64,000 bases of DNA, taken from positions 32,163 to 96,162 of IMG/VR virus record IMGVR_UViG_3300033068_000989; one strand, written 5' to 3'. The DNA comes from a virus (Duplodnaviria > Caudoviricetes). Under the pieces are notes generated by a model. It was given only the letters and a program-made list of their open reading frames with translations, was not told the origin of the DNA and did not search any database. Shown piece by piece: positions 13,695 through 45,800 of the stretch; position 1 is the stretch's first letter; each line of letters starts with the position of its first letter. Both the position numbers and the translations under genes were made by a program.

Positions 13695-14744
13695 ATGAAA
13701 GGAAAAGATCTGTTTGAATCAATTTTAAACGAACAAAATATTTTGTTACGTATTAGTGATGAACAGATATTTTCTAGGTATATATGTAAAGTTCAAAACT
13801 CATTGTCTTCTCCATTTAGAGTAGATAAGAAGAACTCTTGTGGATTCTATAAGAATAATAAGGGTAGGTATATCTTGCATGACTTCTCTACTGGACAAAG
13901 TTGGGGAGCAATATATGCTGTAATGGAGAAGACTAAAATGAGCTATGCAGAAGTTCTTAAGATGATAAACAAAGATTTTGAATTGCGGTTAGATACTCTT
14001 AATCCTGTAAATAAAGTCAGAGAACTTCAAATAGAAGAAACAAAACCAGTAAATAACATATCATATAGTATTAAACCATACGAGAAAAAAGAAATAGAAT
14101 ATTGGGAACAATACGGAATTACTTCTAATACATTATTGAAATATGGTGTTTACTGTGTGCAGTCTGTACAGTTTGCAAATTCTTCTTGAAGAGCTACTAA
14201 AAATAATCCTATATTTGTTTACACCACAAAAGATCCAAAAGTATTTAAACTATATCGTCCATTATCAACTAATCAAAAATGGGCAGCAAAGACTAATAGG
14301 TATGTTATATGGGGGCTAACCCAATTACCTAATAAAGGAAGTTTATTAGTAATAACTAAATCATTAAAAGATGTAATGGTATTACATGAGTTAGGAATTC
14401 CAGCAATTAGTCCAGATTCTGAAGTAATTAATATTCCTAATAATATAATTAAGGAACTAAAAAAACGATTCAAGTATGTAGTAAGTATGTATGATTACGA
14501 TACAGCTGGTATAGCAGCTGCAACTAAATTAGATATACACTATATGTTTCTATTTAAAACTAAAGATATTTCAGATTATTATCAGAAATATGGTAAGTAT
14601 AGTACGTACAGAGTACTAAAAAAACTAATATCAAAATCTTATCATAGACATGAAAAATTCTTATTTCACCAAAACTTTATCAGACCTAGCCGACAAAATA
14701 ATAGGAAGTTTAGATTGGGATTCCAAAGAGATATACCCTTCTAA
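13695..14744 (+). CDS. dnaG: DNA primase (DnaG/TOPRIM), 349 aa with in-frame TGA at 14187-14189
   Basis: SPFRVDKKNSCGFY N-domain, EYWEQYGI, then *RATKNNPIFVY...KLYRP...LVITKSLKDVM...YDYDTAG; tracked ORFs 13695..14189 and 14376..14744 are one frame split only by TGA. Confidence 0.9.
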
Positions 14745-14880
14745 AGAAAATGTATTTAATATTTTAGACGATTTAAATAGATATAAATCTAAAGTTATAA
14801 TCATTGGTCAGGATCCGTACTACACACCAAACATGGCTACTGGCAGAGCATTTGATGTACCTGTAGGTACTACAAAACTT
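14650..14880 (+). pseudogene. ung: Uracil-DNA glycosylase family 1, N-terminal fragment
   Basis: IYPSKENVF...KVIIIGQDPY...ATGRAFDVP; similarity stops just before the expected PPSL motif. Confidence 0.85.
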
Positions 14881-14926
14881 AAACACAGCACTGCACCCTG
14901 CCTTGCGGCAAACGTGTGTTATGGGC
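14870..14926 (+). repeat. attC-like site 1 (right half only)
   Basis: Ends GTTATGGGC (14918-14926); left arm missing; acaaaactt at the ung junction also occurs in the loop of site 5. Confidence 0.6.
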
Positions 14927-14984
14927 TGCCGTTCTTTTTCGATATAGCTCTGGGAGGGCTTTGCAAAACCCACAATTAAATAAA

Positions 14985-15278
14985 ATGGTAGAAAACCAAA
15001 ATTTCGGACAAGCTATTGAAGCCTTAAAGCAAGGTAAGAGAGCAGCAAGACAAGGATGGAATGGAAAGGGAATGTTTCTCTTTTTGTTGCCAGCAGGAAC
15101 AGTACCAACCAAAGCAATTCACGACCCTGCATTAAGGGAAGTAATTGAGCAAGAAATTGGTGGAGAAACATTTGAAGCATTGGGAAGTATCCGAATGTTT
15201 ACAGCCGACAAAAAGATTTTGACTGGTTGGCTTGCTTCTCAAACTGATATTCTTTCAGAAGATTGGGTTATCCTGTAA
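14985..15278 (+). CDS. tad2: DUF2829 / Tad2-like anti-defence nucleotide sponge (cassette 1)
   Basis: NFGQAIEALKQGKRAARQGWNGKGMF...GWLASQTDILSEDW; ATG 14985 after an A-rich leader preferred to the tracked start 14916. Confidence 0.8.
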   Translation: MVENQNFGQAIEALKQGKRAARQGWNGKGMFLFLLPAGTVPTKAIHDPALREVIEQEIGGETFEALGSIRMFTADKKILTGWLASQTDILSEDWVIL

Positions 15279-15291
15279 AAATTGTGGGTTT

Positions 15292-15321
15292 CGTAGGACG
15301 GTCTTTCGGGGTCGTCTTACG
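15292..15321 (+). other. 13-bp hairpin with TTCG loop after the Tad2-like gene
   Basis: cgtaggacggtct-ttcg-gggtcgtcttacg, four G-T pairs, no U-tract. Confidence 0.6.
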
Positions 15322-15324
15322 GTT

Positions 15325-15391
15325 GCCCATAACGTTTTGGCTATGCGTTCGGCTGACGATAGGAAGCTGACGTATAGGTGTTGTTAACTAC
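15325..15391 (+). repeat. attC-like site 2
   Basis: GCCCATAAC...ctatgcgt[t]cggct / agctgacgtatag...GTTAACTAC; stem with one bulged T. Confidence 0.8.
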
Positions 15392-15424
15392 TGTGCGACT
15401 TTAATAATTAAAAATATAAATAGA

Positions 15425-15844
15425 ATGAAAAACTTACTTTGGTTAGATGATATTAGAAACCCTTTTTTAAATGAAGAGGGTAAAGTACCAACAGATAAAA
15501 ATGGTGAATACTACAATATAAACTGGGTTTTAAATTACGAACAGTTTGTAAAATGGATTGAAATTTTTGGGTTACCTGATGCAATTTCTTTTGACCACGA
15601 TTTAGCAGATGAACATTATACCCCTGAATACTTTTGGGATAATTACGAGGAAAGTAAAAAGTTTCAAGAATGGCGTGGCAAAAATTACCAAGAAAAAACA
15701 GGAATGGACTGCGCTAAATGGCTTGTGGATTACTGTATGGATAATAAAAAGAAATTGCCTGAAATATACATACACTCTGCAAATCCTGTTGGTGCGGATA
15801 ATATAAAAGGGTTGTTGGATAACTTTGCTAAGCATTGTAGTTAA
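15425..15844 (+). CDS. Cyclic-phosphate-processing receiver (REC)-like protein (cassette 2)
   Basis: LWLDDIRNP, ISFDHDL, KTGMDCAKWL, IHSANPVGADNI; stop codon inside GTAGTTAAC. Confidence 0.75.
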   Translation: MKNLLWLDDIRNPFLNEEGKVPTDKNGEYYNINWVLNYEQFVKWIEIFGLPDAISFDHDLADEHYTPEYFWDNYEESKKFQEWRGKNYQEKTGMDCAKWLVDYCMDNKKKLPEIYIHSANPVGADNIKGLLDNFAKHCS

Positions 15845-15931
15845 CAGGGCATTTACGCTGCCCCGTAATTGAAAAACAAAAGTTGAACAGCGAATTGTCC
15901 GCAGGGGTAGCGTAAATGCCTTGTTAGCGGA
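15837..15931 (+). repeat. attC-like site 3
   Basis: aacagggcatttacgctgcccc / ggggtagcgtaaatgccttgtt, 22-bp stem with two G-T pairs; ends GTTAGCGGA. Confidence 0.85.
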
Positions 15932-15947
15932 TGGTGCGGTAAATTAA

Positions 15948-16160
15948 ATGAAAATGGTAATTGAAAAAGAAATTAAAGTTGGAAGCAAATACAGATTTGT
16001 TTCACAAAGCATTGACGAAGTAGTAACTATTACAGAAAGTCCCATAAAAAATAGTAGAGGCTTTTTGGAATATGGAGCAAGAAACAAAGATGGTATTTAT
16101 CGCATTTGCTTCAATAACGAACTATTCAAATTGGAAATGTCAGATAGCACTTGCCGCTAA
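15948..16160 (+). CDS. Small hypothetical protein (cassette 3)
   Basis: 70 aa; stop codon inside GCCGCTAAC. Confidence 0.7.
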   Translation: MKMVIEKEIKVGSKYRFVSQSIDEVVTITESPIKNSRGFLEYGARNKDGIYRICFNNELFKLEMSDSTCR

Positions 16161-16243
16161 CGGACGGTAGGCAGTTTGGCGACAGTAGCCGAAGTGTTGG
16201 CATTGTGCGGTCGGGCAGCTTGCACAAAACCGCTGTTAGCTGC
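16153..16243 (+). repeat. attC-like site 4 (degenerate stem)
   Basis: GCCGCTAAC...GTTAGCTGC; inner pairing is broken into short hairpins (ttggc/gccga, ttgtgc/gcacaa). Confidence 0.65.
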
Positions 16244-16284
16244 TGCTGCGGTAGATTTAGTAGAAACTTAATTAAAAAACGAAA

Positions 16285-16845
16285 ATGGGAAGTATAAAAG
16301 GACAAAAACATAATCCATACATTGAGGGAAAGTATGCACACTTAAACCCGAATGATGTGGTATTTACGCCCGATTGGTTGGCGAAGCAGATTTGTGGGAT
16401 GTTTGATATTGATGGCAAAGTATTAGAGCCGTGTAAAGGTGAAGGTGCATTTTTGAAATACCTGCCTGAAAATACAGATTGGTGCGAAATTGCAGAAGGT
16501 AGGAATTATTATGACTATAACGAGAAAGTAGATTGGATTGTAACAAACCCACCTTACAGCGATTACAACCGATTTTTAGAACACTCATTTGCATTGGCAG
16601 ACAATATCGTATTACTTGTGCCTGTTGCAAAAATGTTCAAGAGTTTGGGAACTTTGAAACTGATATTTGAATATGGTGGGTTTGTATCAATACATACTTT
16701 ACCAGCAAGTAAGGCAGGTTTCCCATTCGGGTTTCCGTGTGCTGTTTATTATTTGAAACGTGGTTACAAAGGAGAAACTAAAATTGAAATGTTGCAATGT
16801 ATGGATAATGTTCAATCGGAGTTGTTCAGTAGCAGTTGCAGCTAA
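16285..16845 (+). CDS. Small amino (N6-adenine-type) DNA methyltransferase (cassette 4)
   Basis: VFTP, VLEPCKGEGAF (motif I), IVTNPPYS (motif IV); stop codon inside GCAGCTAAC. Confidence 0.85.
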   Translation: MGSIKGQKHNPYIEGKYAHLNPNDVVFTPDWLAKQICGMFDIDGKVLEPCKGEGAFLKYLPENTDWCEIAEGRNYYDYNEKVDWIVTNPPYSDYNRFLEHSFALADNIVLLVPVAKMFKSLGTLKLIFEYGGFVSIHTLPASKAGFPFGFPCAVYYLKRGYKGETKIEMLQCMDNVQSELFSSSCS

Positions 16846-16960
16846 CGTTTTGCGTATATACGCAGTGCAACGAAAACTTAATTTGAAACACAAAACTTGA
16901 AAATATATGAAAAATTTAATTAAAAAACTGAAAGCATTGCGTATATACGCAGTTAGCAGT
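16838..16960 (+). repeat. attC-like site 5 (loop contains a start codon)
   Basis: GCAGCTAAC gttt tgcgtatatacgcagtgc ... gcattgcgtatatacgca GTTAGCAGT. Confidence 0.85.
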
Positions 16961-17056
16961 AGTTGTGAACATTCCTTTTATAGATATGGTATTAGATACG
17001 GGAAAAATTTATATAGATGTAGTCATTGTGGAAAAGAAAAAAGCAATTACTGCTAA
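16907..17056 (+). CDS. 49-aa zinc-ribbon-like peptide starting in site 5 and finishing in cassette 5 (absent from ORF track)
   Basis: MKNLIKKLKALRIYA|VSSSCEHSF...YRCSHCGKEKSNYC; CxH...CxxC; stop codon inside ACTGCTAAC. Confidence 0.7.
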   Translation: MKNLIKKLKALRIYAVSSSCEHSFYRYGIRYGKNLYRCSHCGKEKSNYC

Positions 17057-17290
17057 CGTGCCGAGTGTAAACGTTAGTAAATTAAAATTATAGCACAAAT
17101 GACAAAAAAAGAACTGGCAAAGTGGCTTCACGATAATTACGAAGCAGTTGCAAAAGAACAAAATTGGAATACACAACAAAGTTGCAAGGTAGAGTTTAAC
17201 ACTTTGCCTGATGCTAATAAACGCACAATGATTGAGATAGCAGATAGGCTTCTTAATTTTAATTTATTGCGTTTACACTTTGTTATGAAA
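17049..17290 (+). repeat. attC-like site 6 with a ~160-nt protein-coding loop
   Basis: agtgtaaacg[t]tagtaaattaaaatta / taattttaatttattgcgtttacact, ~26-bp stem with bulged T; ends GTTATGAAA. Confidence 0.8.
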
Positions 17291-17380
17291 TCGTTGCCCG
17301 ATGATTACGAAATTTATCAAAAAGCACACGAGATTGACGAAAAAGACTTTGCTCAATGGATGTACGAACTATTTAGGTAG
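17099..17380 (+). CDS. Hypothetical protein: N-module inside site 6 fused to truncated cassette 6
   Basis: ORF crosses GTT (17282) in frame as Val (...RLHF|VMKS...); ends at the right junction with ung. Confidence 0.7.
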   Translation: MTKKELAKWLHDNYEAVAKEQNWNTQQSCKVEFNTLPDANKRTMIEIADRLLNFNLLRLHFVMKSLPDDYEIYQKAHEIDEKDFAQWMYELFR

Positions 17381-17496
17381 AGCGTATACTATCTAACTCT
17401 AAAAATTGCGGCACTTTCCCGCCATTTAGTGAGATAAATTGTTTTGAACTTGCAAATATTACATTAAAAATATTAAAAAAACCTATATTATGATAG
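17377..17496 (+). pseudogene. ung: Probable uracil-DNA glycosylase C-terminal fragment
   Basis: VERILSNSKNCGTFPPFSEINCFELANITLKILKKPIL-TGA-TAG resembles the UNG tail F...N.F..AN..L.....PI.W-stop. Confidence 0.6.
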
Positions 17497-17999
17497 AAAA
17501 ACATAAGGAGTTAGAATTATATACAATTAATAGGGGATGTTGTTTTGCATCCCCTTTTATATTTGTGTATGGAGCATTAAGAAAAGGACATGCTTTACAT
17601 GATAGATACATATCACCTAGTAGTATATATGTAGGTACATATAGACTGCAAGGATTTATATTAGGAGTAACTGATAGACTATATTCCTGTATGCATACGG
17701 GAAAAGAAACTGATTCAGTTGTTATAGAAATTTATAGAATTGACACTGATTTAAATGATCCATTTAAATCAGACAAGTCTATATATAAATTTGTAGATAT
17801 GTGTCAATGGAACTATAAACTAGATGTATTAGAAGAACGGTATAAAGTAGCTATAATTACAGTAGAGAAAGGTGCTATGCAAATTACAGGAAAATTATAC
17901 TTAAGTGAAAAAGTAAAAACATTATATAAAACTGGTGATGTAAATAATCCTAAGCATTTTGTAGATTATCCATTATTAACTATTAAAAAATCACAATAA
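17490..17999 (+). CDS. Gamma-glutamylcyclotransferase (AIG2-like)
   Basis: IFVYGALRKG..H motif, VVIEIY. Confidence 0.75.
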   Translation: MIEKHKELELYTINRGCCFASPFIFVYGALRKGHALHDRYISPSSIYVGTYRLQGFILGVTDRLYSCMHTGKETDSVVIEIYRIDTDLNDPFKSDKSIYKFVDMCQWNYKLDVLEERYKVAIITVEKGAMQITGKLYLSEKVKTLYKTGDVNNPKHFVDYPLLTIKKSQ

Positions 18000-18949
18000 T
18001 GAAATATTACCCACACTTCCTGGGAGGGAAATCATCAAAGATGAAGAGATACTTCAAGTTAAATAAAGAATTTCCAATAGGACATCCACAAAGATACCCA
18101 ATAGAAAATGCTTTGTTTCCATATAAAGTAGATATTTCTTTTGGAAGTACTAAGCCATCAGATAAACATGTATTAAGAATTAATACATCACAAGCAATTA
18201 AAAATTGTTCTAATAAAGTTTTAACTAAAAATATTCTAAAAGATAAGTGTCCTATTGTAACTAAATATGCTAAACTAAGTACATTCATAGTAGGCGATGA
18301 GTTACATATAGGTAAAATTAAAGAGCAAATAAGTTTTCCATTAGTAGCCAAACTAATATATGGATACGGTGGAATAGGAATGTACTTTATAAGCACATTA
18401 GATGACCTACTAGACTTTCTAGAAAGACAAAAAAATAATTTAAATAATTACTTTCTAGAAGAATATTTTAATACTACAAATGAGTATAGAGTACATATAT
18501 CACCTCTACTTAAAAATACTAAGATTCAATATAAATATGAGTATGGAGTACAAGTAAATGGTAAATGGGAAATTAAATTAAGTCTACCGAAAGTTTATGA
18601 AACTCGTGAAATTTTATCTGTTGAAAAGAAATTTTCTAATAATTCATTAATTAGAAACAGAGATAATGACGCAGTATTTTCTTCTAATTTTAGTAAACCA
18701 GATTGTTGGGAGAAATTAATTGAAGATTGTTTTAAAGCAGCTGAATTACTAGGCGTAGATTTCTGTTGTTTTGATGTACTATACAATAAAGACACAGGAA
18801 AATATGTAATCTGTGAAGCTAACTCTAATCCAGGAATGGATAACTCTATCACTAACTCATCTAAAAATATAACCGCACAACATTACCAACAAATGTTTCC
18901 CTATTTAATCACTAATAAATACTTAAAAGTATGTGCAGTTTCTTATTAA
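17999..18949 (+). CDS. ATP-grasp ligase (RimK-like)
   Basis: NKVLTK, FPLVAK..GYGGIGM, EEYF...EYRVH, LGVDFCCFDV, ICEANSNPGM. Confidence 0.85.
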   Translation: MKYYPHFLGGKSSKMKRYFKLNKEFPIGHPQRYPIENALFPYKVDISFGSTKPSDKHVLRINTSQAIKNCSNKVLTKNILKDKCPIVTKYAKLSTFIVGDELHIGKIKEQISFPLVAKLIYGYGGIGMYFISTLDDLLDFLERQKNNLNNYFLEEYFNTTNEYRVHISPLLKNTKIQYKYEYGVQVNGKWEIKLSLPKVYETREILSVEKKFSNNSLIRNRDNDAVFSSNFSKPDCWEKLIEDCFKAAELLGVDFCCFDVLYNKDTGKYVICEANSNPGMDNSITNSSKNITAQHYQQMFPYLITNKYLKVCAVSY

Positions 18950-30839: not shown

Positions 30840-33800
30840 TTATTTTACATGTTTTTTATCCTTATTATTTACTATTCTTTTTATATTTGTGTCGAAATCA
30901 TATTTATTATCTATTAATATTGGTATGCCTATAGTGGTAAGTTTAGCGGCATTTTGTAATACTTTTTTATCTTTATATAATGAACTAAACTTGTCACCAT
31001 AGACGCCATTTTTGTTGAAAGATTTTAAGCTATTACCTAATATTAATACTTTATTAGCGTAATCAATACTTTTATTTTGTATATCTTTCTTACTATTAGC
31101 TTTTTCTGGAGAATTATACGAAACAATTGCTCTATATAAAGCATCCCCGTCAGATTTTTCAGTGGCTTTATAATTGCTGTATTTTCTTGCAAGAATCGCT
31201 AATGTAAACATATATGCATTCTCTTCATTAGTTCGATCGTCTAAATCAAATTCCTTTGATATTTCATCTATTCTTTTATTACTAAAGTTTTCTAACATCT
31301 TAATTCTACTATAACCGGTAGATGCGTATGGAGAAACTTTTTCACTGCTACCAGTTAAAGTTTGCAAACCTCTTTTAACTCGTCTAGCTATTGATGCGCC
31401 TATTTCATATGTATTCCTAACGACGTCACTCACTGTGTCAGGTAACTTGTCTCCCATAGAAAAACTGCTACCCACTTTAGATTCTTTAGACATTATTCCA
31501 ATAGCTGCTTTAGATAAAGAGCTCAACTCTTCTGCATTTAGTTTATAGAAATTTTGTATTTTTTTAGAATTTGCATTTATAAATTCTGTCATATTAACTA
31601 CTCTTTCATAACCTTTTTTACCGATGTATCGTGTTATAGAAGGATCAGCCTCAAATTTTTCTACCTCTTGGTAATTAGTAGGAATCTTGTCATAATTAGG
31701 CCTAGTTATTCTATTTATTTTATGAAAAATTCTTTTATTATACGCATTTTGTACTTTCCCATCACTATTAAATCTTATTGTATATGCTACACCTTGCCAT
31801 TTACCATCTTCTTTTTTTTGATGTGTATTATCATTTACATCAAATGAACCATCAGCATATACTTTTCTAACATACCCAACATGTGAATTACCATCCCCTT
31901 TTATGTCAGCTTCTGCTTGATATGGGGAAGTACCACCAGTAAATATAGATACTATATCCCCAGGTTTTACTCCTTTTATTTTACCTTTATCAGTCATTCT
32001 ATTGTATACAGAATTACCTCCTTTACGTATTACATTATCTGCCATATTCCAAGCATCTCCATATACACCTAATGTACTAAAAAATTTATCTACACCCATC
32101 TTAGTACTTATACTTTTATATATATCATCTCTTACAAACTTCGCACACTGATCTGATTCACATTTTATACCTTTATCAGAATAAAGAGGTAACTCTAATA
32201 AAGTTGTAATAGTAGATTGCGCTACGTTGTTTACTCCTTTACTTAATTCTTTATAAATATTTTTATAGTTTTCCCCCACTATCTTGTTAGTTATTTTTCT
32301 ATTTACTGAATCACTTGAACTATTTGAAAAAGGATTAAATTTATCTATATATCTAGACAAAGCAGCCATAGTACCTATATCCTCATAGTTTTTAAATTTA
32401 TCTATATATTTTTTAGTTTCTTCAATTTGTGCAATTTTCCTTTCTTCTATTGATGGAGGACGTGTTACAAACTCTTTACTATTTACATAGTAGTCCATCC
32501 AATTTCTAGAATATTCGGTATTATTAACCACTTTAGATTTCTTATCACCTTTAGGCTCCATAGGTTTTTTAATATTTTTTAACCTTGTAAATTCTTTTTC
32601 TTCTGGAGTATCATTAAACCCAAAAATAGCTTTTTCTAATTTTCTAAGTAATGAAGGTTCTTTTGCTTGAATAGTTAATCCATCAGCAGCATGATATTTA
32701 GTTTTACCATCAGAGAACATTACCCTACCGTTATCGATAGATAGGTCAATACCTCCTTGAGTATGTGAAGGACCCTTAAGATCTTTAACTATTTCCCATT
32801 GCGAACCTGGCGTAAATCCTAATGTTAATCCTGACTCAGCAGTTAGACCTCCAGAACTTTTACAATTTTTCTCTATTTCTTCAGCATGTTTTGATAATTC
32901 TTTATCTAATAATGCTTTTGCTAATAATACAGGATCATTATCCATAATTGCTGCTTTGAACAATTGTTCAGCTGTAGTTTCTTGTACTTTAATATTAGAT
33001 TTTCTTCCTCCTAATGTAAATCTATTGACATTAGAGTCTTTTAATCTAGCTTCTGCCTCTTCTGGAGTATCGTCTTTTGTTAATTTACTTTGTATTTTGT
33101 CTAATAATTGGTCTATATTTTTACTTTTTGTAACAGCCTGGTAATTTAATTCTTCATATAACGATTTACTAAAATATATGTTACTAGGTATAGATCTATT
33201 GGTAGATAGAATAATTTTAGAAAGTTGTTTAATATTTAAATGTGATGGGTCATTAGAATTATTAAATGTAAATATAAATTTAAGTTCTGGGGACTGTTCT
33301 GCGGCGTCTATTAATAAATTTATAGACTTCTTAACATTTTCTTCAAGTTGATTATACTCATAATATTTTCCATCAATATCATATACATCATTAAAAACTA
33401 ATCCAAATCCATATCCCTTAGTTCCCATTACTACCTTATTAACTTGCTTAGTTGCGCCGAAGTTACCAATTACAGATTTAGAAATATCTTTAGTCTTAAA
33501 TACTTCTTTAGCATTCCCAAATGCTTTTTTAACTTGTGCGGATATCGGAAGATTTAACGTATTTGTGACATAGACAAATACTCTATCCCCACCTAATGCG
33601 TTTAAATTAGGAAAATAATCAGAACCCGTTGAAGAGTACTGGTAAATAGATCTTATTTTATTTCTATTTATTTTATTAATTACATCTTGAGTTGGCATAT
33701 CTTCGTAAGTATCAGTAACTTCGTTATATACTTTATACCCTATATCATTTTCAATAACCGTATATTGTATAAAATCATCCTCTTCAAATGTTTCATAATT

Positions 33801-36800
33801 ATCTATTTGTAACAAAGATATTCTATGTCTTGCCATATCGTCAAAATACGTACCATATATTTTATCAGTAGGTAAATACTTTCTAGTATGCATATTTTTA
33901 TTATAAGTAATAGTAAACGTATTTTGTACGAGATTATTATCTTCGTCTAATACCTCTTTACTATGTATGTCATATTCTATACTAGGTATAAATTTAATTG
34001 TAGGCAGGTCCGTTCTAAAATGATCAGAAAAATTATAAGGCTTTTTAGTCAAAACAATTTTACCAGGATTTACCTTATGGTAAAAAGATACAGTAGTTAC
34101 TTTATCTCCTACTTCTATCTCATCTTGGTGTACTAATACAAGCATTTTATGATTTTTTACATCCTTTCCTAGTTTTATTATCGGTAAAGAATTTGGTTTG
34201 TTAGAAATTATAATATAATCATAATATGGTAAACTATTTTCAGCCTCTGCTCCATATAGATTTATTAACATATCATCTAATTTAGTTTTTCCTGCGTCAC
34301 TAAAATTATGTGCTATTATAGAATCTTTCTGCAAAATTTTTGAAAGTGTAGGAACACTTTCAGGAAATTTTTCAGCAACTCCCAACATGTATATCTTCCT
34401 TAAACCACTTGAATTAGCATTATTTTTTATCCAAGTATCATATGTTTTATTCAGATTACCAGTATATCTAGATAATATTTCAGGTGCTATAGCATTTACA
34501 TAGTTGTTAGAAGCAATTCTTAATCCAGTATGTATTATTGCATAAGTAATTAAATCCTTTTGTAAAGATGATTCTCTTCTTGTTGGGTCATAAACTACTT
34601 CATACCTAATAAATTCCCCGTCATCATCGTTAATAGGAATAAAATCGTAATAAGATAAGTCTGTGAATGCTTTATGATAGTCAGATATTTCAAATGAATA
34701 TAGGGAAATAGAATCGACTGTATTTATTGTCGCTCCAATTCCAGATTTAGTTACTAAATGTGCGATAAAGATATTTCTAAGAAAATCCGAATTTCTTTTT
34801 ATTTCTCTATCCTCATATCTCAGCACGGCATTTATTTTATCTATTACATCATTAACAAAAGAGTCTATACCATGTAAACTTCTCGTTTTAACCGCACCTT
34901 TTTTAATCGTTACTGACTGTCTGATATCAGTAAACATAATACTACTTACTTCTGAAGACATGAGAATATCTGATAGTAACCATGCCCCATACACACTAGC
35001 TGTACCTTCGTCCAATAAAATATTGGATGAAGTAGGCGTAATATAATTAACTATCTTCATGGATTTTTCAGAAAATATAGAGAAATTAGTTTTGATGTTA
35101 TATAAGTGATTCAATGTTTGTATGAGTGCAACAGCAATGTGTGGATTTGTGTCTAATATATTAAATATATCAAGTTGTATACCTGCGGCAAATATCAAAT
35201 CATGTTGATTATCGAAACTATTTTTCTTTAACTGTTCTAGCCCCTTTCTTATGTACTTAGAATATTCCTCAACTGATAAATTATTTGGCATATCTGCAAA
35301 CTTAGTATATAAGGCATCTAAAAACTTAGACTTAAATATTTGTTTAATCTTAGTCTCCCAGTTAAATAATTGCTGTGGACTAGTAGGTTTATCTTGTGGC
35401 AGACTAACTAATGGTATTAGCTTCCGTTTTTGTTGGGCAATATTGTAGATCTTGTGTAACATAAATAAAGCTTTCATTAATTCCATATTATTTCCGTTAT
35501 CTACTAACGATAAAAAGTCTACTTTATTTTCATTACGTAAGTTTTGTATATAAATTTCAAACATTGAATCAGTTATTGACATATCTCCAGGTTCCTCACC
35601 GTTTTTGGCATCTTTTAATTGTTTGAATTTAGCATCAACTTCCGTATCTTCGTCTACTTGTGATGAATCATCTTGTGTTATTTCACTATTTGATTGCTCC
35701 TCATAGTCACTTATATCTTCGTCTTGCACATCAGAATTATTATGGTCTTTAATTATTTCCATTAACTCTGTATTATTAGATTTAGCAGCTTTTAGTATTT
35801 CGTCTGTTGTTATACTTAAATCAGTATACGCATATGTGTAGGCTTTAGATCCATCTAAATTTGTTCCACTTTCCACCACAACCTCTTCTACTAATTTCAT
35901 TAAATGTGTTATAGTCCTATTTTTAAATGCTTCTTTTATTAATGGTATATTCATTAGTAATAATATATCTTCAAATGATACGTTATTTAAAGATAAACCA
36001 ACATCAATTAAGTTAGCATTTGCACCACTAAATCCTATTTCAAAAATTTCTGGGTTTTTAAGCGCGTCTAGGAAAGCGTTGAGTAGTTTATTATTAATCA
36101 TGTAAGATAGTGTGTCTTGCCCAAATGCTAAAACTTGTGTACCAAACCTAGATACCTCTTTATTATTTAAAGAGAATTCAAAATGTTTTGGTAAATATGG
36201 ATACATATTTTGTTTAGATGCCTTAGATAAATAAGCTAATACACCACTACCTTTAGCATAAATACTAATAGCATCAGCAGCTTCTTTTACATTAGAATAC
36301 TGCTGTATATTATCTTCTGGAAAAGATAAATCTTTGGTATTATGTTTTATGACTATTCCATTATCTTGTAAATATTGTAAAGCTGTAGCGATGATCTTAG
36401 TAGTAGTCACATCCAATATTCTATGATTGTTTGAAGGATCTAAATATGCTAGCATTATTGTTTTTACAAGCCTATTTTTTAACGCCGCTACTCTAGCCTC
36501 TTGTATAATTTTCTTATCTTTTCTTACTTCTTTTATTCGTTTATTTAATGCCCCAATTTCATTTTCATATTTGTTTTTACTTGCTACACTTTTTGCATTC
36601 TTTTTTCTTTCTTTATTAACTTTAAGTATATCTTTAAACTTTGTAATTTGTGTAGTTAACTTTGCTAATTCGTCTAAAGCAGCTTTTTCAAAATTTTCAA
36701 ACTGTGTATTATCTTTAAGATCGTATTCACTTTTTCCATTGATAATATGCGTAAACCCTACCAAAGAATCTGCGTTAAATGAAAATGTAGAGCCCGCTAA

Positions 36801-39800
36801 CTTTGATTTATATCCTACCTCATGTTCCTCGAATGATAATAAAAATAACGAGTCGACGTCAAAGTCCCAACCTTGTTTCATTATTTCAAGATCTGGAAGT
36901 ATGATTATATTACTATCTCCTTCTGTAGAATAAAAGTCTACTACTTTTATCAATAATCCAGCATTTAAATCACCAGATGGAATTCTAAATCCAAACATAT
37001 CAGGAGTTAAAAATAAAGGCTTACCATCCTTCAATGCTTTCTTTTGTGAATTTGTTAAAAAATATGCAGGAACAGCCGCCTCTGCATATGGAGTGCCGTC
37101 TTTAGTTTTGCCAATTCGCAGCTTATCCATGATTATGTTAATCTTACCATTACTGCCTTTAACTTTCTTCCTTACACTGTAACCAATGTCTGACTTTAAC
37201 GTAAGTTTACCTCCCCTTACTCTGATCCTAGAAGCATTCTTATTTAATTTGGATCCTAACATAGTAATTATCTTACTTAAAATAAGTGGGTGATCCACAG
37301 AAAGTCCTGCTTCTATAGCATTCCTTACAGCAAAATCATCGTTAGCCCCTGTATTACTACTGATAGCCATTTTCTTTATGTCTTTTTTACTTACTTGTCC
37401 CTTTTTGAAAATACTACTATATAATATATTTTGTAGTGCTGCTAAAGTATTATAAGCCTCTACTGCATGTTCTGTATTTTCTACAGTAGACATAAAATGA
37501 AGTAATTGCCTAGGTACTGCTGTAGTAATGTCTGAAGAGTGTGGGTTAAACTGAATTTTAAATAAAGACATATCTATAGGAATTACATTAGAATCTGTAT
37601 CTATAGAGATATTACTTAAAACATTACCAGCTTCGTCAAATAGGTTTTCACCACTAGGTGTTAATACTTTATTAGCTGAATTAAATACTAACATATCAAT
37701 TGGCTTACCATTATATTCCATCTCATCTAACATTTTTCGAAGCTTAGCTAATTGTTCTCTACTTTTTGCAGATCTGGATTCAGCATTAATAAAGTTATCG
37801 TCTAATACAATAATTGCATTCTTTAAACCTACCGGAAATGTTTTTACATCTAATAATTTTATAGTTAATTTTGGCTTTTTGTTATCATTACTTTCAGAGT
37901 ATTCTTTTATAAAATGAACTCCTTCAAAAAACTTATTTTTAGCCAATGATTTTTTGTGTTTTATCTGCCATGCCTCTAAAGCTTCTTTTATAGTTGGATA
38001 CGTATTGTCATTGTCAGGTGTACGTATTTCTGACCATCCAAAAGCTTGATCTTTAATAGCCGCTCTTAGATTAAGGCCAGTTCCAAATCCTTTTTGTAAT
38101 TTATAAAAAAACTTAGGCGTAATAAATACTGTTCCATCTGTTCTCTCTATATTAGAAAACTCTCCATTATTTTTTGTTATTTGATTTAAAATATTATTCA
38201 GGTCGTTGTGGTCTATATCAAACTGCTGTAACATACTAGCATAATCACTTCCTGGAGTAATTACATCTTTAGCCATTAACATATTAGCAAATTTAGGTGT
38301 ACCGTATCTATCATCAATTAAGGACAGATAACCTGGTGAAACAGATAGTTGAGATCTCTTGCCTATATTTTCAACAGATCCATACATATTAAAATCACCA
38401 TATGCTAGTTGAGAAAGTCCATAACTATTTACATAGTTATTTGCTAAATACGATAAAACCATGAAATTAAATACATCATTGCTAGGATAAGCTGCTTTAG
38501 TAAATTCTTCTGTATGTGCTTTAAAGTTTTTTAAATCTTCTGGTAAAACGGTTTCATCAATTAGAGATTTAAACATTCCTCTAATTACTGTATTTTTTAT
38601 TGATGTGGAGCTAAATGTACTTCTTATTAATCCATATGCTTTGCTAAATTCATCAGATAATGGTAATCCTGTGTTCTCATAATTTGTCACTAGATTTTTT
38701 GCTTTATCATATAACTGTTTTATCATATCAGCAATTAGAATATTTCTATATTCTTCATTAGAATATTTTTTTATTCCTTTATATTTTTGTGCAGCCTCCG
38801 ACTTTTCTGCGTTATTTAACAAAGAAAAATTTAATCTCTCTTTTTTATTATAAGAAGGATGATTCCGATGTCGTTCTTCTACATAATCTAATTGTTCTAT
38901 CATAGAATGAAATGCTTGAATTATTCCATCTATTCCTAAATAAGATACCTGAGGTATCTCAGATTTAGTAGATAATCCTTGTTGGTATAAAGGTTGGTAG
39001 TACGACTTTTTATATTCGGCATCAAATTTCCCCCTACCTATTTGCGCAAAAAAGAAATCATTCATCAATAATTGCAATCTGCGTGTGTCAGAAATTCTTT
39101 CTGCACTTGTTATATATTTACCAGATCTTCTTAATAAGAATCGAGTGGTACCATTAAAAATGGTACTAATATTATTTATAAATATATTCTTAGTAAAAAA
39201 TTCGCCATTTAAATATTTAGATACTTCTCCTTTCTTTAATCTATTGTAGTCTTTTACTATCTCTCTAAATGAAAATGTAGGGATATATTCTAGCAATGTT
39301 TTATTGTCTGCACTTCTTACAGTTTTTACTACTTTTATTACACTATTCTTTTTAGCTAAATCTGCTACTCTATCCCCTAATATTTTTATAGCCTTATTTG
39401 ATAGAAAAATATTTTTAAACTCGGTATATGTTTCAATATCGATGTTACGACCTTTGCCAATGAGTCTGGGCAATTCAGATTTTGCATCAATTAACTCTTT
39501 ATAAACTGACGACATCGCTGTCATAATATTATTCAACAAATTACTATATTCTTTTTCTTCTTTAATGGCTTCTTTAAAATTCGTTAGATAATCTAACCCA
39601 AATAATCGTAAAAAATTGTTAACAATTTTTTCTGCTTCATCAGCTTTATGTCTTAATATTCCACTAAATACTGCACTCATGTGCTTATTACTAGTTATAA
39701 ATATTTCTGTACCATTGTAATTCACAGGAGATGTTCCTATAAGCATGTCAAAAAGTTCGTCTAATAATCTCACTTTAGTACCAAGAGACACGCCTAATGA

Positions 39801-42800
39801 AGACATTTTTTTCGCTTTAGAAGATCTGTAAATTTGTCCACCTTCCTCTCCTTTTTTAATACCAGAATTATCGTGAATCTCGATATAAGTAACTTTAGCT
39901 AAACTTCCTAAGTAAGTTCTTAAATTAACTAAATCATTAAAGGCTTTATTCTTTTTATATAGATTTAAAATAATATCAGCTCGTTCTGTATTTTTTGATT
40001 TACTTACAGCTTCTTCTATAGAAGAGTATTTAGTTATTTTTACCTTGTCACCAAAATTATACTTAGCTTCTTCCACTGTCATGCCAGATACATCGATATT
40101 ATTAGATGGATCCACAACTTCTATAACATAGAAGTCCCCAGAAAATTTATCAGCCCCTTTAGAAAAATTGTCTATAAATACTGATATTGTCGTAGGAATT
40201 GGTTTGCTAATAAGTTCTCCTGTTTCTTGATCCTCTATTTCTTCGCCTATAAAATTATCTATAGTTTCAATTAACTTATCTAATATAGCTAAATCAATTC
40301 TATTAAAACCCGATGACTTTTTAATTGCCAATAGACTCTCTCTTATTTGTGTAACATTATTTAAGTTATCTAAATCTATATAGTCATGTAGTAAGTCAGA
40401 TATAAATGTAATAGCATATTTAGGTAACACGAAACTTACTATTATATTATCAGAACCATATATAGGTATTAATGATAAATAATTCTTCACTTCTGTACTA
40501 AATGAATCAACAAAGTTAGATTCATCTGATTTTGAAATTTCATTATGTAGATTGCTTTCACCTTTATCTAGTTCAATGGAAGCCCAATTATTAAAAATAT
40601 ACCTAAGTACTTTTTGATACTCATTAGAAGTATTATTTGATAATATTTCTAGCACTTTAATTGTGTCATTATACCTATTATAAAGAGAAATTATCTTAGT
40701 TATTTCTGTAAATACAGAAATTCTTTCCCCTTTTAACGTTAGCAGCTCCTTCATAGACAAGCCATCCTCGTCTAATTTCCGATCTAGTTCTAATTTTGTA
40801 TTTTTCTTTTCTTCTAAAACATCCAATAAATCATCCACATTATTTATATTACTAAATCCTTCTTCTTTTAAAGTGTTCTTAAATTCTTTATCTAATGTGA
40901 CATAAAGATTATTTATATTTTTATGTGCAATCTTTTGGGCATCTTGAAAAGGTATAACAGATTCATCTGAATTTTGTGCTAAGTATATTTGTTTTTTAAC
41001 TTCAAATACAGCTTGATTAAATAGTTGTATTGAGTTACCGAATGATCTTTTTAACTCGTTAAGATTTTCGTATTTAACAGATATCTTATGCGAACCTGTA
41101 GAATCATCTACTGATTTATTTATTACGAATCTGTTTCTATCATTTAGACTAATTAGTATATTTTTAATATTTTCAATTACTTGTGTAAGTAACTCATTTT
41201 TTTCTTGTTCTGAATACTCATCATAATCTTTTATCTCATTAACGAATTGTTGTAAATCTTCATAGACATCCACCATACCAGGATGATTATTTTTTAAATA
41301 CGTGATCCCACTTAATGCAATTTCTAATAAAGTGCGTGAATCATCAGTTGTCTCAGATGCTGTCTCAGATGCTGTCTCAGATGCTGTCTCAGATGCTGTT
41401 TTCCTGGTAGCTTTGGATGTTGTTTTCCTGGTAGCTTTGGCTCTTTTTGTCTTTGCCTTTACTATTGGATTTTCTTCAGTCTTTGCTTCTTCTGTATATA
41501 AATCTTTTAAAGACGTAATTGCTAAATTATATAAATTCTCATTTTCTTTTTTACTAAATCCAAATAAATCTGCTATCGCTTTTATAACACTGGCAAACAA
41601 ATTACGTAAAAGTGATTTGCTTCTTACATTTATTTCTAATTCTTTTTTAGTAATTCTGTAATCTATTTGTTTTAATAAATCAATAAATTCTTTATTACTT
41701 AGATTGGCTATAAATTCTTCTTCAGTAAGTTCACCTACTGTGGTGGAGTATATATCTTCTAATGCTTTACCAGATACTTTAGGGGCAACTGCATCAAATA
41801 GCTTTTTAAGTTGCTTGATTCTTTCTACAAATTTTTTCTCTTGTGGAGTTCTTAATTTTTCTGGGACATCGAAAACTCTTATAGTTGCTGCATGTATTAA
41901 TTCATGTAATAATGTGGTAAGTTTATAATTTTTTCCTAGTATAACCACAGTTGTTCCGTCTTTCTTAATATACGTCACACCTGCCCCACGTGGAAATTTT
42001 TCAGATGTGTAAAATTGAACGTTTCCTATATGTGATAATATTACATCTGCTACTTCTTCCAATCCTTCCTTAGCGAATCGTTGTGGCGTAAGTTTTAACT
42101 CGCTTTTTCTATACCCAGATTTTGGTGAATCTTCTTTATTTTTCCATTTGTTCACATGTTTCTCTAGCTCTATTCCTAATTCTTCTAATGTCTGAGATTC
42201 ATCTGTACTTGGTGACGTACTTTTTTTAGTGGCTTTGCCAATTTTACCTACAATTAATTTAGGTGGGGTATAATGCGAGAAATAGGTTATAGTTTGTTCT
42301 TCTATTTTTCTCCTATTTTCAGAATCAGTCATATCTAGTGCAGATACAGACGGTCTTATATTTATTCTAAGAAAATGTCCATTATCTAATTTAATAGGCT
42401 GTCCAGGTAATATTTGACTAATTATGTCCGAAAGCATTTGTGAAGTAACAGGCACACTTTCAAAATTACTGAGAGCAACTTGTAACGCTTTAGCTTCTTC
42501 TGGATGCAAGTCTTCTAATCGTTTAATTAGTTTACTATTCTTACCTCTATATTTTCCAGTATCTGCGTGTTCCTCAAGTATTATTTTATTAACCGCTTCT
42601 TGTAATACTTTTACCATATTAACTCTCTTTCCATCTTTCTCGATAACAAGAGTTTCACTTATTTTATCTAGCCTTTCCTTATTACTCGGATTATCTATAG
42701 TTCTGCCTAGAACTATATCTCTAAATGCCATGTTTAGACCTCCTAACCAAGACATTTTTTTACCCACATGTGATCCAGTTGCACCATGAGTTAATGATAA

Positions 42801-45800
42801 TAATGATCTAGCTGTAGATTTTCTTTCAGACGTACCATCGTTATACGTAATTGTATAACTAGTATTTAATTCATACCCAAATAATTTATTAGATCCTGTA
42901 GATCTTGCTAATCTTGTCCAAGCTCTAGTAGTATTAGTGCCACCTATACCATGTATATATGTTTTAAAGTTTTCTATATCCGTGGTATTAGTAGAATTAT
43001 CTACTATTTCTATTTGTACCTTTATAAATTTATCATCTTTACCAATTTTTTTATCAAAATTAAAAGTATACCCCATATCTTTGTATAACTCCTCCACCTC
43101 ATCTATAGCTTCTTGAGTATTTTCTATAACCAGTGTTTTACTTTTAGCGGAATACAGTTGTTTTACTACTTTATCTAACGAGGTAATTAATTCGTCTAAA
43201 GTTTTTTCAGAAATATCTTTAGTAATAAAATCTATTTGTTTGTGCTCTAATAATTTTTTAACAATTTCTCTTACTCTTTTCCTATCTTTTAGTTGTAGGT
43301 TTATACCTTTTTCTTGTGTATGTATATACGCTAATTTAGCAAAGTCATCTATTATGTATGTATTTAGACGTTTGCCAGGATCCCCTAAAGTTAGTTGATA
43401 ACCTACTTTATTTGCTTTCTTTAGTTCACTATTATTAGTAAACAAACTTTCTAAATCATTGATATCCGCTAAGAAATCTCTTAGCGGTTGTATGGTTTTA
43501 TCATACCATCCGAACGTTCCATCACTATTTCTAGTATTGGCTAGATTTTGACTTAATAAAATCCATTGCGGAGCAGCATTAGGGGAATCTTGTCTATAGT
43601 CAGTTATTTCTAATGCAACATGTCCTATAACATTTTCATTAAATCCTCTTCTTCCTAATTCATTCTCTACAAAGTAGGTTCTAGTTATTACTACTGTCCG
43701 TACCTTAGAATAGTCAATTCCCTTTTTAGGATCATTATCTATATACATTTGGTACTTAGCTGGAGTGTATTTCCCAGTTTTAATATCTAAAATTTTCCTA
43801 TCTTCGTAGAAACTATTTAACCAATCTTCTAGTATATTGTCCATGGATGTTTCAACTGTATTTCCTTGGAAAAAATATACATAGTTAGCTTTAGATATAA
43901 ATTTACTTGACAATTCCGCCATAATTTGTTCACTTGGATTAGTGATAAACTCATTGAGTTTTTTACCTGGCACAAAATTTACGGTTTTAGCCTTAGACTC
44001 TCTTAAATAAGAGAATCTACCATTTAATTCCTCTGAAGTTAATACAGCTACTTCATAGTACCTACCCTCTAAATCTGGAGCAATGGCAATAATTTTAATA
44101 TTAAAACCATTCCTAGTATTATTTCTTTGCCTAATAATAGTAATCTTCAAATCATCGGTAGGTTTTCTACCTTTAGTAACTTTTTTAATATTAACATTAT
44201 TTACCTCCTTGAAAGATATGTTATTTTTGTTATTTAATATCTCATTACTAGGTATTTCTGGTGGTATAAATTCATTAGTATTAGGATCAAGTATTACATC
44301 ATCTACAGCATCTTCCCCTGTTCCTTCTTTTGCTTGTACTCTCTCTCCATCCTCGTCATCATATTCTTCTTCATCGTCAGTATATTCATCATCTTCTTCT
44401 TCTTCGTCAGTATATTCATCTGCTTTATCTTTCCCCTTTTCTTTTTTGCTGTCGCTTTTCTCTTTATTAGTTTCTTCTTTAATTTCTTTCTCTACTCCAA
44501 AATATCTTTCAGCAGAATTGGCTAACCCATCTAACATCATAGATTGCGCCACTGCTAAATGTTCTCTGACCTTATTACCAATGTCTAAACTACCATCTAC
44601 TTCTTGTTTATTAGTATTCACCGTTACTGCAGAAGGAGCTATACCTACAAATTCCCTTGCCCTACCAATTGCTGTATACATAGCTGTATTAAAGGCATTA
44701 GCAGAAAATATTTCTCCATTTATATCTTTACCATTATGCGACATTAAAATATATACCTCATCAACAGTTATACTTTGAGTATCGTAGTAAGTTAATACTT
44801 GGACATTAAGTTTATCCAAAGATAAATCAGTTTCTGCGCCTAATTTTTTTATAAATGCATCTCTTTCTTCCTCGGTGTTAACAACAACTACGGCTGTTCT
44901 AGTAGTCTTTCTTTTTGCTAAAAATTTAGGAAGATTGTCTGCTACTACTTGGATTACGCCTAAAGAAGAATCACTGTATTCTGATAAAGTAGAAATATCT
45001 GAAATAGTATCAATACTGTCAATAAACTCTGTATTATCTTTAAAACTCATTAAAGCATTTGTAATCGACTGTATATTAGATCTATAAATTGTATTAAGTG
45101 GGGATAATTGTACAAGACCTGTAGCGTTCCCTATAGACACTTCTCCATGCATACCGCCTCGAGCCATATCTGTTATTAAAATATGAGTATTGTCTTTTCT
45201 ATTCTGAGACATATCTCCTGCAAATATTACTTTAAGCTTGTTACTACCCTTTCTTTTACTATTGACACTAATGACTAATTTATTTACAGCGTCTATCTGT
45301 TTGTTAGACATTGCAAATGCCTCATCTACTATTAGTATATTTATTTCATCCAGATCAGATTCTGAAAGTTCTTCAATAGTTTTATTATTTACACGTGACG
45401 AATCTATATGCCTATTAATATTGTCTGCAGAAATTGAAGTGTGCCCTGTACCTAGTATGATATCAGTATTGTTATCACCATACATTTTAGCATATACCTT
45501 AGATATCAAGCCTAGTACAGTAGATTTGCCTGATCCTAATACTCCAGATAAAACTGCTGCATAACTCATATCATCTTCAGTGCCTATATCATTGGAGGAA
45601 AGAAACAAAATCGCATCTAAGATAGATACAAATTGTTGTTGTGATAGATTTATATTATTCTCACTGGTTATTTCTTCGATAGCTTTTTTAAATTCTACAA
45701 AAGAAAATCTAGTATTCATATTTTTTTGTAGAAGTTGGATACCTATCAAAGGTCTAAAAAAATCTAAAATTAATTTATTAATTGCGTCGGCTTCTTCTCG

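Follow-up and report, generated by a model that had tools for sequence, protein, structure and literature searches.

Whether phages keep a counterpart of the defence-rich integrons of bacteria, stocked with genes directed against host defences, is the question raised by a run of small gene cassettes in the genome of an uncultured tailed phage (Duplodnaviria; Caudoviricetes). The array lies at positions 14884-17385 of the window, as we call the whole 64,000-nt stretch of DNA analysed here (bases 32163-96162 of IMG/VR virus record IMGVR_UViG_3300033068_000989, which is 96,162 bp long and rated 95% complete). A preliminary description of this DNA had read the cargo as a counter-defence arsenal. 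With a probability of about 0.6, we regard the locus as an integrase-less integron-type array sampled from a circulating pool of phage accessory genes, in which counter-defence is likely for some cassettes, not for all. A counter-defence theme is credible for one to three cassettes, and the view of the array as a whole as an anti-defence arsenal has the standing of a hypothesis. Its Tad2-family sponge candidate and its cREC protein set the array apart from the integrase-less attC clusters and methylase cassettes of phages that have already been published (Qi et al. 2023, PMC9892861).

In the scenario that we favour, a truncated array of the integron type, devoid of an integrase, would sit in the replication-gene block of the phage, where it replaces the middle of a uracil-DNA glycosylase (UDG) gene. 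Its cargo would be drawn from a pool of small accessory genes, passed around among uncultured phages as units bounded by GTT and AAC; many of these phages apparently infect Bacteroidota. Cassette 1 would provide a tetrameric sponge of the Tad2 type that sequesters the Thoeris signal glycocyclic ADP-ribose (gcADPR); cassette 4 would provide an N6-adenine methylase core that most likely modifies phage DNA against restriction; and cassette 2 would provide a cREC phosphoesterase, predicted to open cyclic phosphates in damaged RNA ends or in ADP-ribose-derived molecules.

The array comprises five complete units and several fragments, about 2.5 kb in total. Five tiled segments each start with GTT plus 6 nt and finish with the reverse complement of that start, ending in AAC; four of these inverted pairs match at 9/9 positions and one at 8/9, and each pair brackets one open reading frame (ORF), whose TAA stop lies inside the terminal TAAC in 4/5 cassettes. 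R'' (..TAAC) and R' (GTTA..) boxes were seen at all five sites, imperfect hairpins of 49-105 nt separate the cassettes, and in 5/5 units the cassette start is complementary to its own R'', in the manner of a circularly permuted attC site. A tiled chain of equal quality appeared in 1/200 Markov shuffles of the window. A permissive search for GTT/AAC tiling, with 8/9 pairs allowed, returned chains everywhere and was dropped as noise; later tiled-pair searches accepted perfect pairs, or 8/9 pairs bridging perfect ones. Independently of the tiling search, the homology of other contigs breaks exactly at the GTT and AAC points, with the cREC unit shared over 15382-15845 in five loci and that of the third ORF ending at 16161. 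The tiled ends, the shuffles and these breaks together bear out the cassette-array frame in which the locus had originally been described. Every cassette ORF points in the direction of the genes on either side, so that cassettes and neighbours are probably transcribed together, as read from orientation. A scan for sigma-70 promoters and terminators gave counts at or below shuffle expectation, Bacteroidota promoters not being modelled in it, and an Rfam scan of 14000-18000 returned a sub-threshold and meaningless MIR530 match alone, Rfam holding no attC family.

Cassette 1 (14918..15333, + strand; GTTATGGGC ... GCCCATAAC, 9/9 ends) carries the 97-aa ORF 14985-15278, which matches the Pfam Tad2-like family PF11195 with an E value of 3e-22 (79.4 bits against a cut-off of 25, profile positions 2-73/73). 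Among solved Tad2 proteins, it matches SptTad2 (8wjd, 6.8e-21, ~45% identity) and HgmTad2/AcrIIA7 (8kbi, 9.6e-20), with further matches to ModTad2 (3.5e-16) and the Tad2 of phage SPO1 (2.7e-14). HgmTad2 contacts gcADPR through W21, N22, G23, M76, A78, T82, V84, W87, L88, S90, T92 and D93, and loses gcADPR binding in the W21A/N22A and S90A/T92A/D93A mutants (Li et al., 10.1101/2023.11.15.567273). In the HMMER alignment to HgmTad2, W21, N22, G23, M76, W87, L88, S90, T92 and D93 are all identical in ORF 14985-15278, including all five mutation-tested gcADPR residues, and the only changed contacts are A78T, T82K and V84L. A second pocket of HgmTad2, which binds the cyclic dinucleotides cGG and cyclic GMP-AMP (cGAMP), needs R31, S47, F70 and N85, each tested by mutation, and is limited to the HgmTad2/SptTad2 subgroup (10.1101/2023.11.15.567273). 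These positions are L, A, A and T in the present ORF (0/4 kept), which also has a shorter version of the insertion from which the cyclic-dinucleotide pocket is built. The protein is thus likely, on the evidence of these residues, to be a gcADPR sponge acting against Thoeris, and probably not a cGG/cGAMP (cyclic di-GMP) sponge of the HgmTad2/SptTad2 type. Where the preliminary description had a DUF2829/Tad2-like sponge for Thoeris or CBASS signals, the family is confirmed, the Thoeris part is made likely by the conserved gcADPR pocket, and the CBASS part is not supported, since the cGG-pocket residues are replaced. The cassette behaves as a discrete unit, spanning 14910-15334 in contig L121 with the same boundaries in L121, L061, L044 and L122, and at least 7 arrays contain a Tad2-like cassette; we found no paper tying DUF2829/Tad2 to integron cassettes. 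Within cassette 1, a second inverted repeat (14965-14977 and 15280-15291, AAAACCCACAATT / AATTGTGGGTTT) closely flanks the ORF, and both its upstream copy and the motif GGCTTTG(T/C)AAAAC are conserved in the Tad2 cassettes of other contigs; this may be an expression signal.

Cassette 4 (16235..16846, +, 9/9 ends) carries the 186-aa ORF 16285-16845, which matches phrog_799, 'DNA methyltransferase', at 2.8e-28 and contains motif I EPCKGEGAF at residues 48-56 and motif IV TNPPY at 87-91, both invariant in 21 aligned family members. Pfam N6_Mtase reaches 14.5 bits, below its threshold of 20.4, so the label of DNA methylase is taken from PHROG and the fold; NCBIfam returned no match for this ORF, and its PADLOC type II methylase matches are weak (3e-4). 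The AlphaFold2 (AF2) model, with a predicted local distance difference test score (pLDDT) of 77 and a predicted template-modelling score (pTM) of 0.77, has among its best Foldseek matches the catalytic domains of M.BseCI (1.9e-6), M.TaqI (2.5e-6), HsdM (2.2e-6) and also CamA, with E values from 4e-7 to 1e-5 and query TM-scores (TMq) of 0.57-0.62. Given a total length of 186 aa and matches confined to the N-terminal catalytic domains of enzymes of 380-610 aa, the protein has no target-recognition domain. A search over the range 102-326 aa found 586 homologs at 73-91% identity, those listed being ~170-230 aa long, and none of the 586 proteins of this family has a functional name or a Pfam domain. 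ORF 16285-16845 is most likely a stand-alone N6-adenine methylase core with DNA as the presumed substrate, in keeping with the solitary NPPY methyltransferase originally proposed.

Cassette 2 (15383..15845, +; GTTAACTAC ... GTAGTTAAC, 9/9 ends, with the TAA stop in the terminal TAAC) encodes, in ORF 15425-15844 (139 aa), a cREC protein (PF20274 cREC_REC, E 3.1e-21, 76.3 bits versus 27; phrog_1479, 1.3e-25), again as first suggested for this cyclic-phosphate-processing, REC-like ORF. D8, D9, D57, H58, D59, K91, T92, G93, H117 and S118 are invariant in the ORF and 8 homologs at 52-89% identity. The cREC family was defined from sequence analysis alone and is described by its authors as experimentally uncharacterised; it is predicted to open cyclic phosphates, at RNA ends or in ADP-ribose 1''-2'' cyclic phosphate, with no need of a metal (PMC7824862, PMC9503650). 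A part in counter-defence, by repairing RNA or degrading signals, is a plausible prediction; a catalogue that lists 268 anti-defence proteins does not include the family. Homologs of the unit are present in L085, L091, L097, L100 and L101. In Cellulophaga phage phi4:1, a homolog of the cREC ORF is one of the ordinary genes of the early region, and cultured Cellulophaga and Tenacibaculum phages more generally encode cREC and DUF2829 homologs in the same way.

The ORFs that lack a clear family are weaker candidate genes than had been implied when they were put forward as candidates for new anti-defence proteins, two of the three not being simple genes at all. Cassette 3 (15923..16161, +, 8/9 ends, where the homology of L112 also ends at 16161) contains the 70-aa ORF 15948-16160, which, like ORF 17099-17380, has zero family matches. 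An exhaustive HMMER search of 1.8 billion representatives found 9 clusters of relatives, the ESM Atlas holds only unnamed viral clusters of it, and its AF2 model is unusable (pLDDT 55). Cassette 5 (16952..17057, +, 9/9 ends) carries the 49-aa Cys-rich ORF 16907-17056, which begins inside the loop of the hairpin upstream of the cassette and has weak zinc-ribbon-like matches (NF050000 3e-4, phrog_7696 1e-4). ORF 17099-17380 reads through from one unit into the next, the two being fused at GTT 17282. Its first ~62 codons belong to a large hairpin-bounded unit (17058..17284, +; arms AGTGTAAACG / CGTTTACACT), which L114 matches over 17053-17284 at 94%, and its remainder, a 31-aa ORF (17285-17380) in the same frame, belongs to the start of a further cassette (17285..17385, +) that forms the right end of the array and has no terminal hairpin. 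Each homolog covers just one part of this ORF, residues 1-63 or residues 56-91, the latter being the case in L118-L120 (17265-17370); for the homolog of the N-terminal unit, the best Atlas score is 0.75 and uninformative. Across the cassettes, a PADLOC scan for defence genes gave weak methylase and HNH similarities only. We also observed that the C-terminal 38 residues of ORF 15948-16160 (..GFLEYGARNKDGIYRICFNDELFKLE..) are joined to unrelated N-terminal halves in proteins P0124 and P0125, and that the 540-aa protein P0126 has nine stretches matching this ORF, best over its residues 38-55.

Related arrays provide a view of the wider cargo. The cassette proteins led to 150 loci, on viral contigs and on contigs of metagenome-assembled genomes (MAGs) from a genome scan with the Tad2-like protein, and only 17/150 share anything else with the window phage, hence the units move between unrelated phages. 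Units of the window recur in viral-contig arrays L061 (9 cassettes), L102, L107, L115, L118 and L121. Close homologs of every cassette are found on viral contigs, bacterial genomes having been searched with the Tad2-like protein only, and the cassette genes are phage-typical families that occur almost only on viral contigs. We drew two samples. The first consists of arrays reached via the cassette proteins of the window (L042, L044, L060, L061, L065, L102, L106, L107, L115, L118 and L121), in which Pfam and PHROG searches of 25 further cargo ORFs identified a methylase (L042), DUF3850/ASCH, two HNH endonucleases and a weak helix-turn-helix match, with ~20/25 outside any Pfam family. The second, blind to cargo, was picked by a conserved hairpin family (GGGGATT, ~62 nt, CGTCAGCCCC) that precedes several cassettes; the search found 87 stretches of viral DNA, whose lengths peak sharply at 80 nt, and yielded 19 arrays with 98 cassette ORFs in 76 families, of which 61 families from 17 arrays were scanned. 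Pfam identified three N6_N4 methylases and one D12 methylase in this sample, and PHROG added phrog_799 and phrog_757 methylases, a PAPS-reductase-like protein and a MazG-like protein, and placed DUF4406 in the nucleoside 2-deoxyribosyltransferase family; ~87% of the 61 families had no Pfam family. Methylases thus account for ~6/61 families (~10%), to which the L042 and phrog_799 cassettes add further cases, and DNA modification is the sole recurrent recognisable theme of the arrays. Other recognisable cargo includes HNH endonucleases, DUF3850, a metallophosphoesterase and DUF4406. The HNH endonuclease cassettes in the arrays of L118 (3995-4378; phrog_2118, 1.5e-38) and L121 (7041-7475; phrog_2118, 1.3e-20) indicate that selfish nucleases, too, are cassette cargo. 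Arrays of this kind are common on uncultured viral contigs, dozens of which carry one, and many of these contigs are probably from phages of Bacteroidota.

These surveys bear directly on the original proposal, which would make the array a dedicated counter-defence store on the phage side, mirroring defence-rich integrons, with ORFs 15948, 16907 and 17099 as new anti-defence proteins. Conflict-linked families do occupy 3/5 complete cassettes, methylases recur in the related arrays alongside the Tad2-like cassettes already counted, the cargo is small and fast-evolving, with viral clusters nearest in the Atlas, as is typical of anti-defence genes, and bacterial integrons are known to stockpile defence systems (10.1101/2024.07.02.601686). 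However, ~80-87% of the cargo families in related arrays have no assigned family, and the recognisable non-methylase cargo (HNH, DUF3850/ASCH, metallophosphoesterase, DUF4406, MazG-like) holds no established anti-defence family. In addition, the fusion of ORF 17099 across a unit boundary, the start of ORF 16907 in a hairpin loop, and the nine clusters and unusable model of ORF 15948 weigh against its candidate proteins. Of the arsenal idea, the Tad2 sponge candidate and the recurrence of methylases in homologous arrays are supported; in the arrays sampled, other known anti-defence families show no enrichment, and Tad2 and cREC are found in 0/61 families. We consider a full arsenal unlikely; we found no paper on anti-defence cassette arrays in phages.

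The behaviour of the units bears on the mechanism rather than on the cargo, and keeps open an origin that is more than a by-product of bacterial integrons. The similarity of the Tad2, cREC and third-ORF units to other contigs goes no further than the AAC of R'', beyond which different hairpins follow, so that these genes do not travel with their own downstream attC, as an integron cassette should. One hairpin sub-family has the same downstream unit start in 5/5 copies, with varying upstream ends. Hairpin stems covary between sub-families and show G-T wobbles on the sense strand only, which points to the top strand, or the transcript, as the molecule that folds. Within the array, the left end is the 3' remnant of an attC-like hairpin unit cut mid-element (14884..14917, +), where GC content rises and whose sequence ...GGCAAACGTGT before GTT matches the 3' arm of the full unit preceding the Tad2 cassette in L061. 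Hairpin unit 1 (15334..15382) has a weak, by-eye L-type stem of 8-9 bp (GGCTATGCGT / ACGTATAGGT); unit 2 (15846..15922) has a 23-bp stem, 91% complementary, and a 39-nt loop (-20.6 kcal/mol, z -5.5); unit 3 (16162..16234) combines a GCTAAC / GTTAGC box, an internal loop and a CGGT stem, its fold showing R-box pairing; and unit 4 (16847..16951) has a 14-bp palindromic stem, TGCGTATATACGCA, with a ~60-nt loop that holds ATG 16907 (-20.2 kcal/mol, z -3.4). As folded DNA, the hairpins with z of -5.5 and -3.4 are strong, and the other three, units 1 and 3 among them, are no better than shuffles. A hairpin-like stretch after ORF 17099 (17392-17436) was considered as a further attC and rejected, being part of a coding remnant of the glycosylase gene. 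Elsewhere, attC-like hairpin units of ~127 nt (..TAAC, stem, GGGGATT, ~62 nt, CGTCAGCCCC, stem, GTTA..) are present on dozens of viral contigs (L161-L247, e.g. L190, L176, L169, L194).

Pushed further, these departures would fit uncultured phages that keep and exchange integrase-less arrays through a dedicated accessory-gene shuffling system distinct from integrons, whose units recombine at both box halves, whose hairpins form in the sense strand or at the RNA level, and whose cargo is dominated by counter-defence. We hold this combination of claims to be doubtful, on a par with the full arsenal. For the array as an integron-type element, relevant precedents come from Qi et al. 2023, who described phage attC clusters devoid of an integrase, 17 in all, with virulent phages and a Polaribacter phage among the carriers, recombined 5/6 tested phage attC sites with IntI1 in vitro, and reported five methylase cassettes, for which they proposed an anti-restriction benefit (PMC9892861).

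The insertion site suggests how the array was acquired. In relatives L001-L004, which are 73% identical in amino-acid sequence in a neighbouring gene, an intact 351-aa primase gene is followed by an intact 210-aa UDG gene and an ATP-grasp-like gene, with no array. In the window, the N-terminal 68-70 residues of a family-1-like UDG (14650..14859, +; phrog_12143, 1e-8) are cut off by the array, residues 1-68 of the intact L001 UDG matching this segment in tblastn (E 3e-16), and a C-terminal remnant (17389..17478, +) matches L001 UDG residues 175-204 at 47% identity and E 0.13, in the same frame as, and at the expected position for, that protein. The array stands in place of UDG residues 69-174. 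With a left end inside a hairpin unit, a right end bare of a hairpin and the middle of a phage gene replaced, the acquisition looks like illegitimate recombination rather than site-specific insertion. A 4473-nt viral contig, L005, matches window 14274-15333 at 97-98% identity; the shared segment takes in half of the primase, the shortened UDG gene and cassette 1 as far as its terminal AAC. The flanks are GC-richer and come from a different phage, with an ATPase gene at one end and terminase-subunit genes at the other. We rejected it as a sister phage with different downstream cassettes, its flanks coming from an unrelated phage; L005 is a recombinant or the product of a chimeric assembly, and because of the latter possibility it was not used as evidence of cassette turnover.

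A history of this kind invites the view that the array is passenger DNA, a piece of a bacterial integron or attC cluster picked up from the host, without benefit and uninformative on phage biology. Its two mid-element ends, the replaced UDG residues and the missing integrase agree with such an accident, as does its GC content, which is 37% across 14.9-17.4 kb, compared with about 30-31% in the window outside it, and, across arrays, stays fairly uniform (0.30-0.39) over backbones of 0.26-0.42, as expected of an outside pool. Against it, every cassette has the close viral homologs noted above, within the same limits of search, and the Tad2-like and cREC proteins belong to phage-typical families. 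The closest 'bacterial' match, L121 (99% at the amino-acid level), is a 101-kb contig binned into a Flavobacteriaceae MAG, on which the array adjoins a phage-type primase. The family-assigned ORFs and the 70-aa ORF are intact, and the common orientation with the flanking genes is preserved. Finally, when three MAGs and two viral records with close cassette homologs were searched for integron integrases (TIGR02249), nothing scored above the cut-off, and generic tyrosine recombinases were all that appeared. Passenger DNA is accordingly an improbable account. Equally improbable is a phage-specific process, by microhomology-driven gene shuffling at unit ends or a hairpin system acting on transcripts, that would give no more than a resemblance to attC: the breaks at both GTT and AAC, units moving without their downstream hairpin, the constant downstream start in 5/5 hairpin copies, the covarying stems with sense-strand wobbles and the lack of an integrase in all eight array-bearing viral records searched would suit it, but the boxes follow the attC R''/R' pattern (TAAC, GTTA, stop codon in R'', unit start complementary to its own end) and attC sites of virulent phages, including the Polaribacter phage, recombine with IntI1 in vitro (PMC9892861).

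Several points weigh against the counter-defence component of the reading that we prefer, that of an integron-type array drawn from a phage accessory-gene pool. Both Tad2 and cREC are missing from the cargo-blind sample, and that they occur in other arrays is in part a consequence of the way in which those arrays were located. The cREC family is without experimental support anywhere (PMC9503650). The methylase core has neither a target-recognition domain nor a Pfam score above threshold, and RNA methylases (KsgA, TrmM) are among its fold matches, ranked lower than DNA methylases. Expression of the array is deduced from gene orientation, the promoter scan having found nothing above chance, and an element cut at both ends that destroyed a phage gene would also fit accidental capture.

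The carrier, a phage of ~96 kb, looks virulent, and a search of the whole 96-kb record for a tyrosine recombinase (PF00589) gave zero matches; its host is probably a member of the Flavobacteriia. Replication and nucleotide-metabolism genes occupy the + strand up to ~23 kb of the window, and large structural genes the - strand, among them a single open reading frame of 6419 aa (30840-50099, - strand). The primase gene upstream of the array (13695-14744) is a continuous frame save for one in-frame TGA at 14187-14189, aligned with a Trp in the intact primase of the relatives, which could be a TGA read as Trp or a nonsense mutation. On the other side, between the glycosylase remnant and the ATP-grasp-like gene, 17490-17999 encodes a GGACT/AIG2-like gamma-glutamyl cyclotransferase (PF06094, 1.5e-5), with nothing in its place in L001-L004.

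If cassette arrays of phages hold counter-defence genes, then membership in a cassette would flag unknown small phage genes for anti-defence screening, as bacterial integrons already serve for finding defence systems. This idea has one solid data point, the Tad2 cassette with its at least 7 arrays, and a hint from methylases at about one tenth of families. Were a dedicated shuffling system with mainly counter-defence cargo real, its numerous unassigned cassettes would form a rich supply of new anti-defence genes that label themselves.

Compared with known systems, the cargo is familiar and its setting differs. The Tad2-like protein shares its Pfam domain with SPO1 Tad2, HgmTad2 and SptTad2, and its gene travels in a mobile cassette instead of being a fixed early gene. 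The cREC protein resembles the phage cREC domains described previously (PMC7824862, PMC9503650) as a stand-alone, phage-encoded domain of ~140 aa with the same kind of acidic residues; the published contexts are neighbourhoods of RNA ligase, Nudix, sirtuin or KptA genes, and the isolated cassette gives no such functional clue. With M.TaqI, M.BseCI, HsdM and orphan phage methylases, the methylase core shares the order of motif I followed by motif IV (NPPY), the Rossmann catalytic fold and the absence of a partner endonuclease, whereas it is only 186 aa long, lacks the C-terminal target-recognition domain of M.TaqI, M.BseCI and HsdM, and belongs to a very conserved unnamed family whose members are 170-200 aa long. 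Sedentary chromosomal integrons are defence biobanks with experimentally demonstrated defence activity (10.1101/2024.07.02.601686); they possess an integrase, attI and a Pc promoter, in contrast to the present array, which has a phage carrier, no such platform and a function that we infer, and both keep conflict-related genes in small promoterless cassettes. From the clusters of attC sites lacking integrases (CALINs) of virulent phages (PMC9892861), the array differs in its Tad2-family sponge candidate and cREC cargo, in having counterparts on dozens of uncultured viral contigs and in units often shared without the downstream hairpin, and it has in common with them small co-oriented cassettes, attC-like hairpins, no integrase, methylase cargo and, through Polaribacter phage P12002L, a probable host of the Flavobacteriia type.

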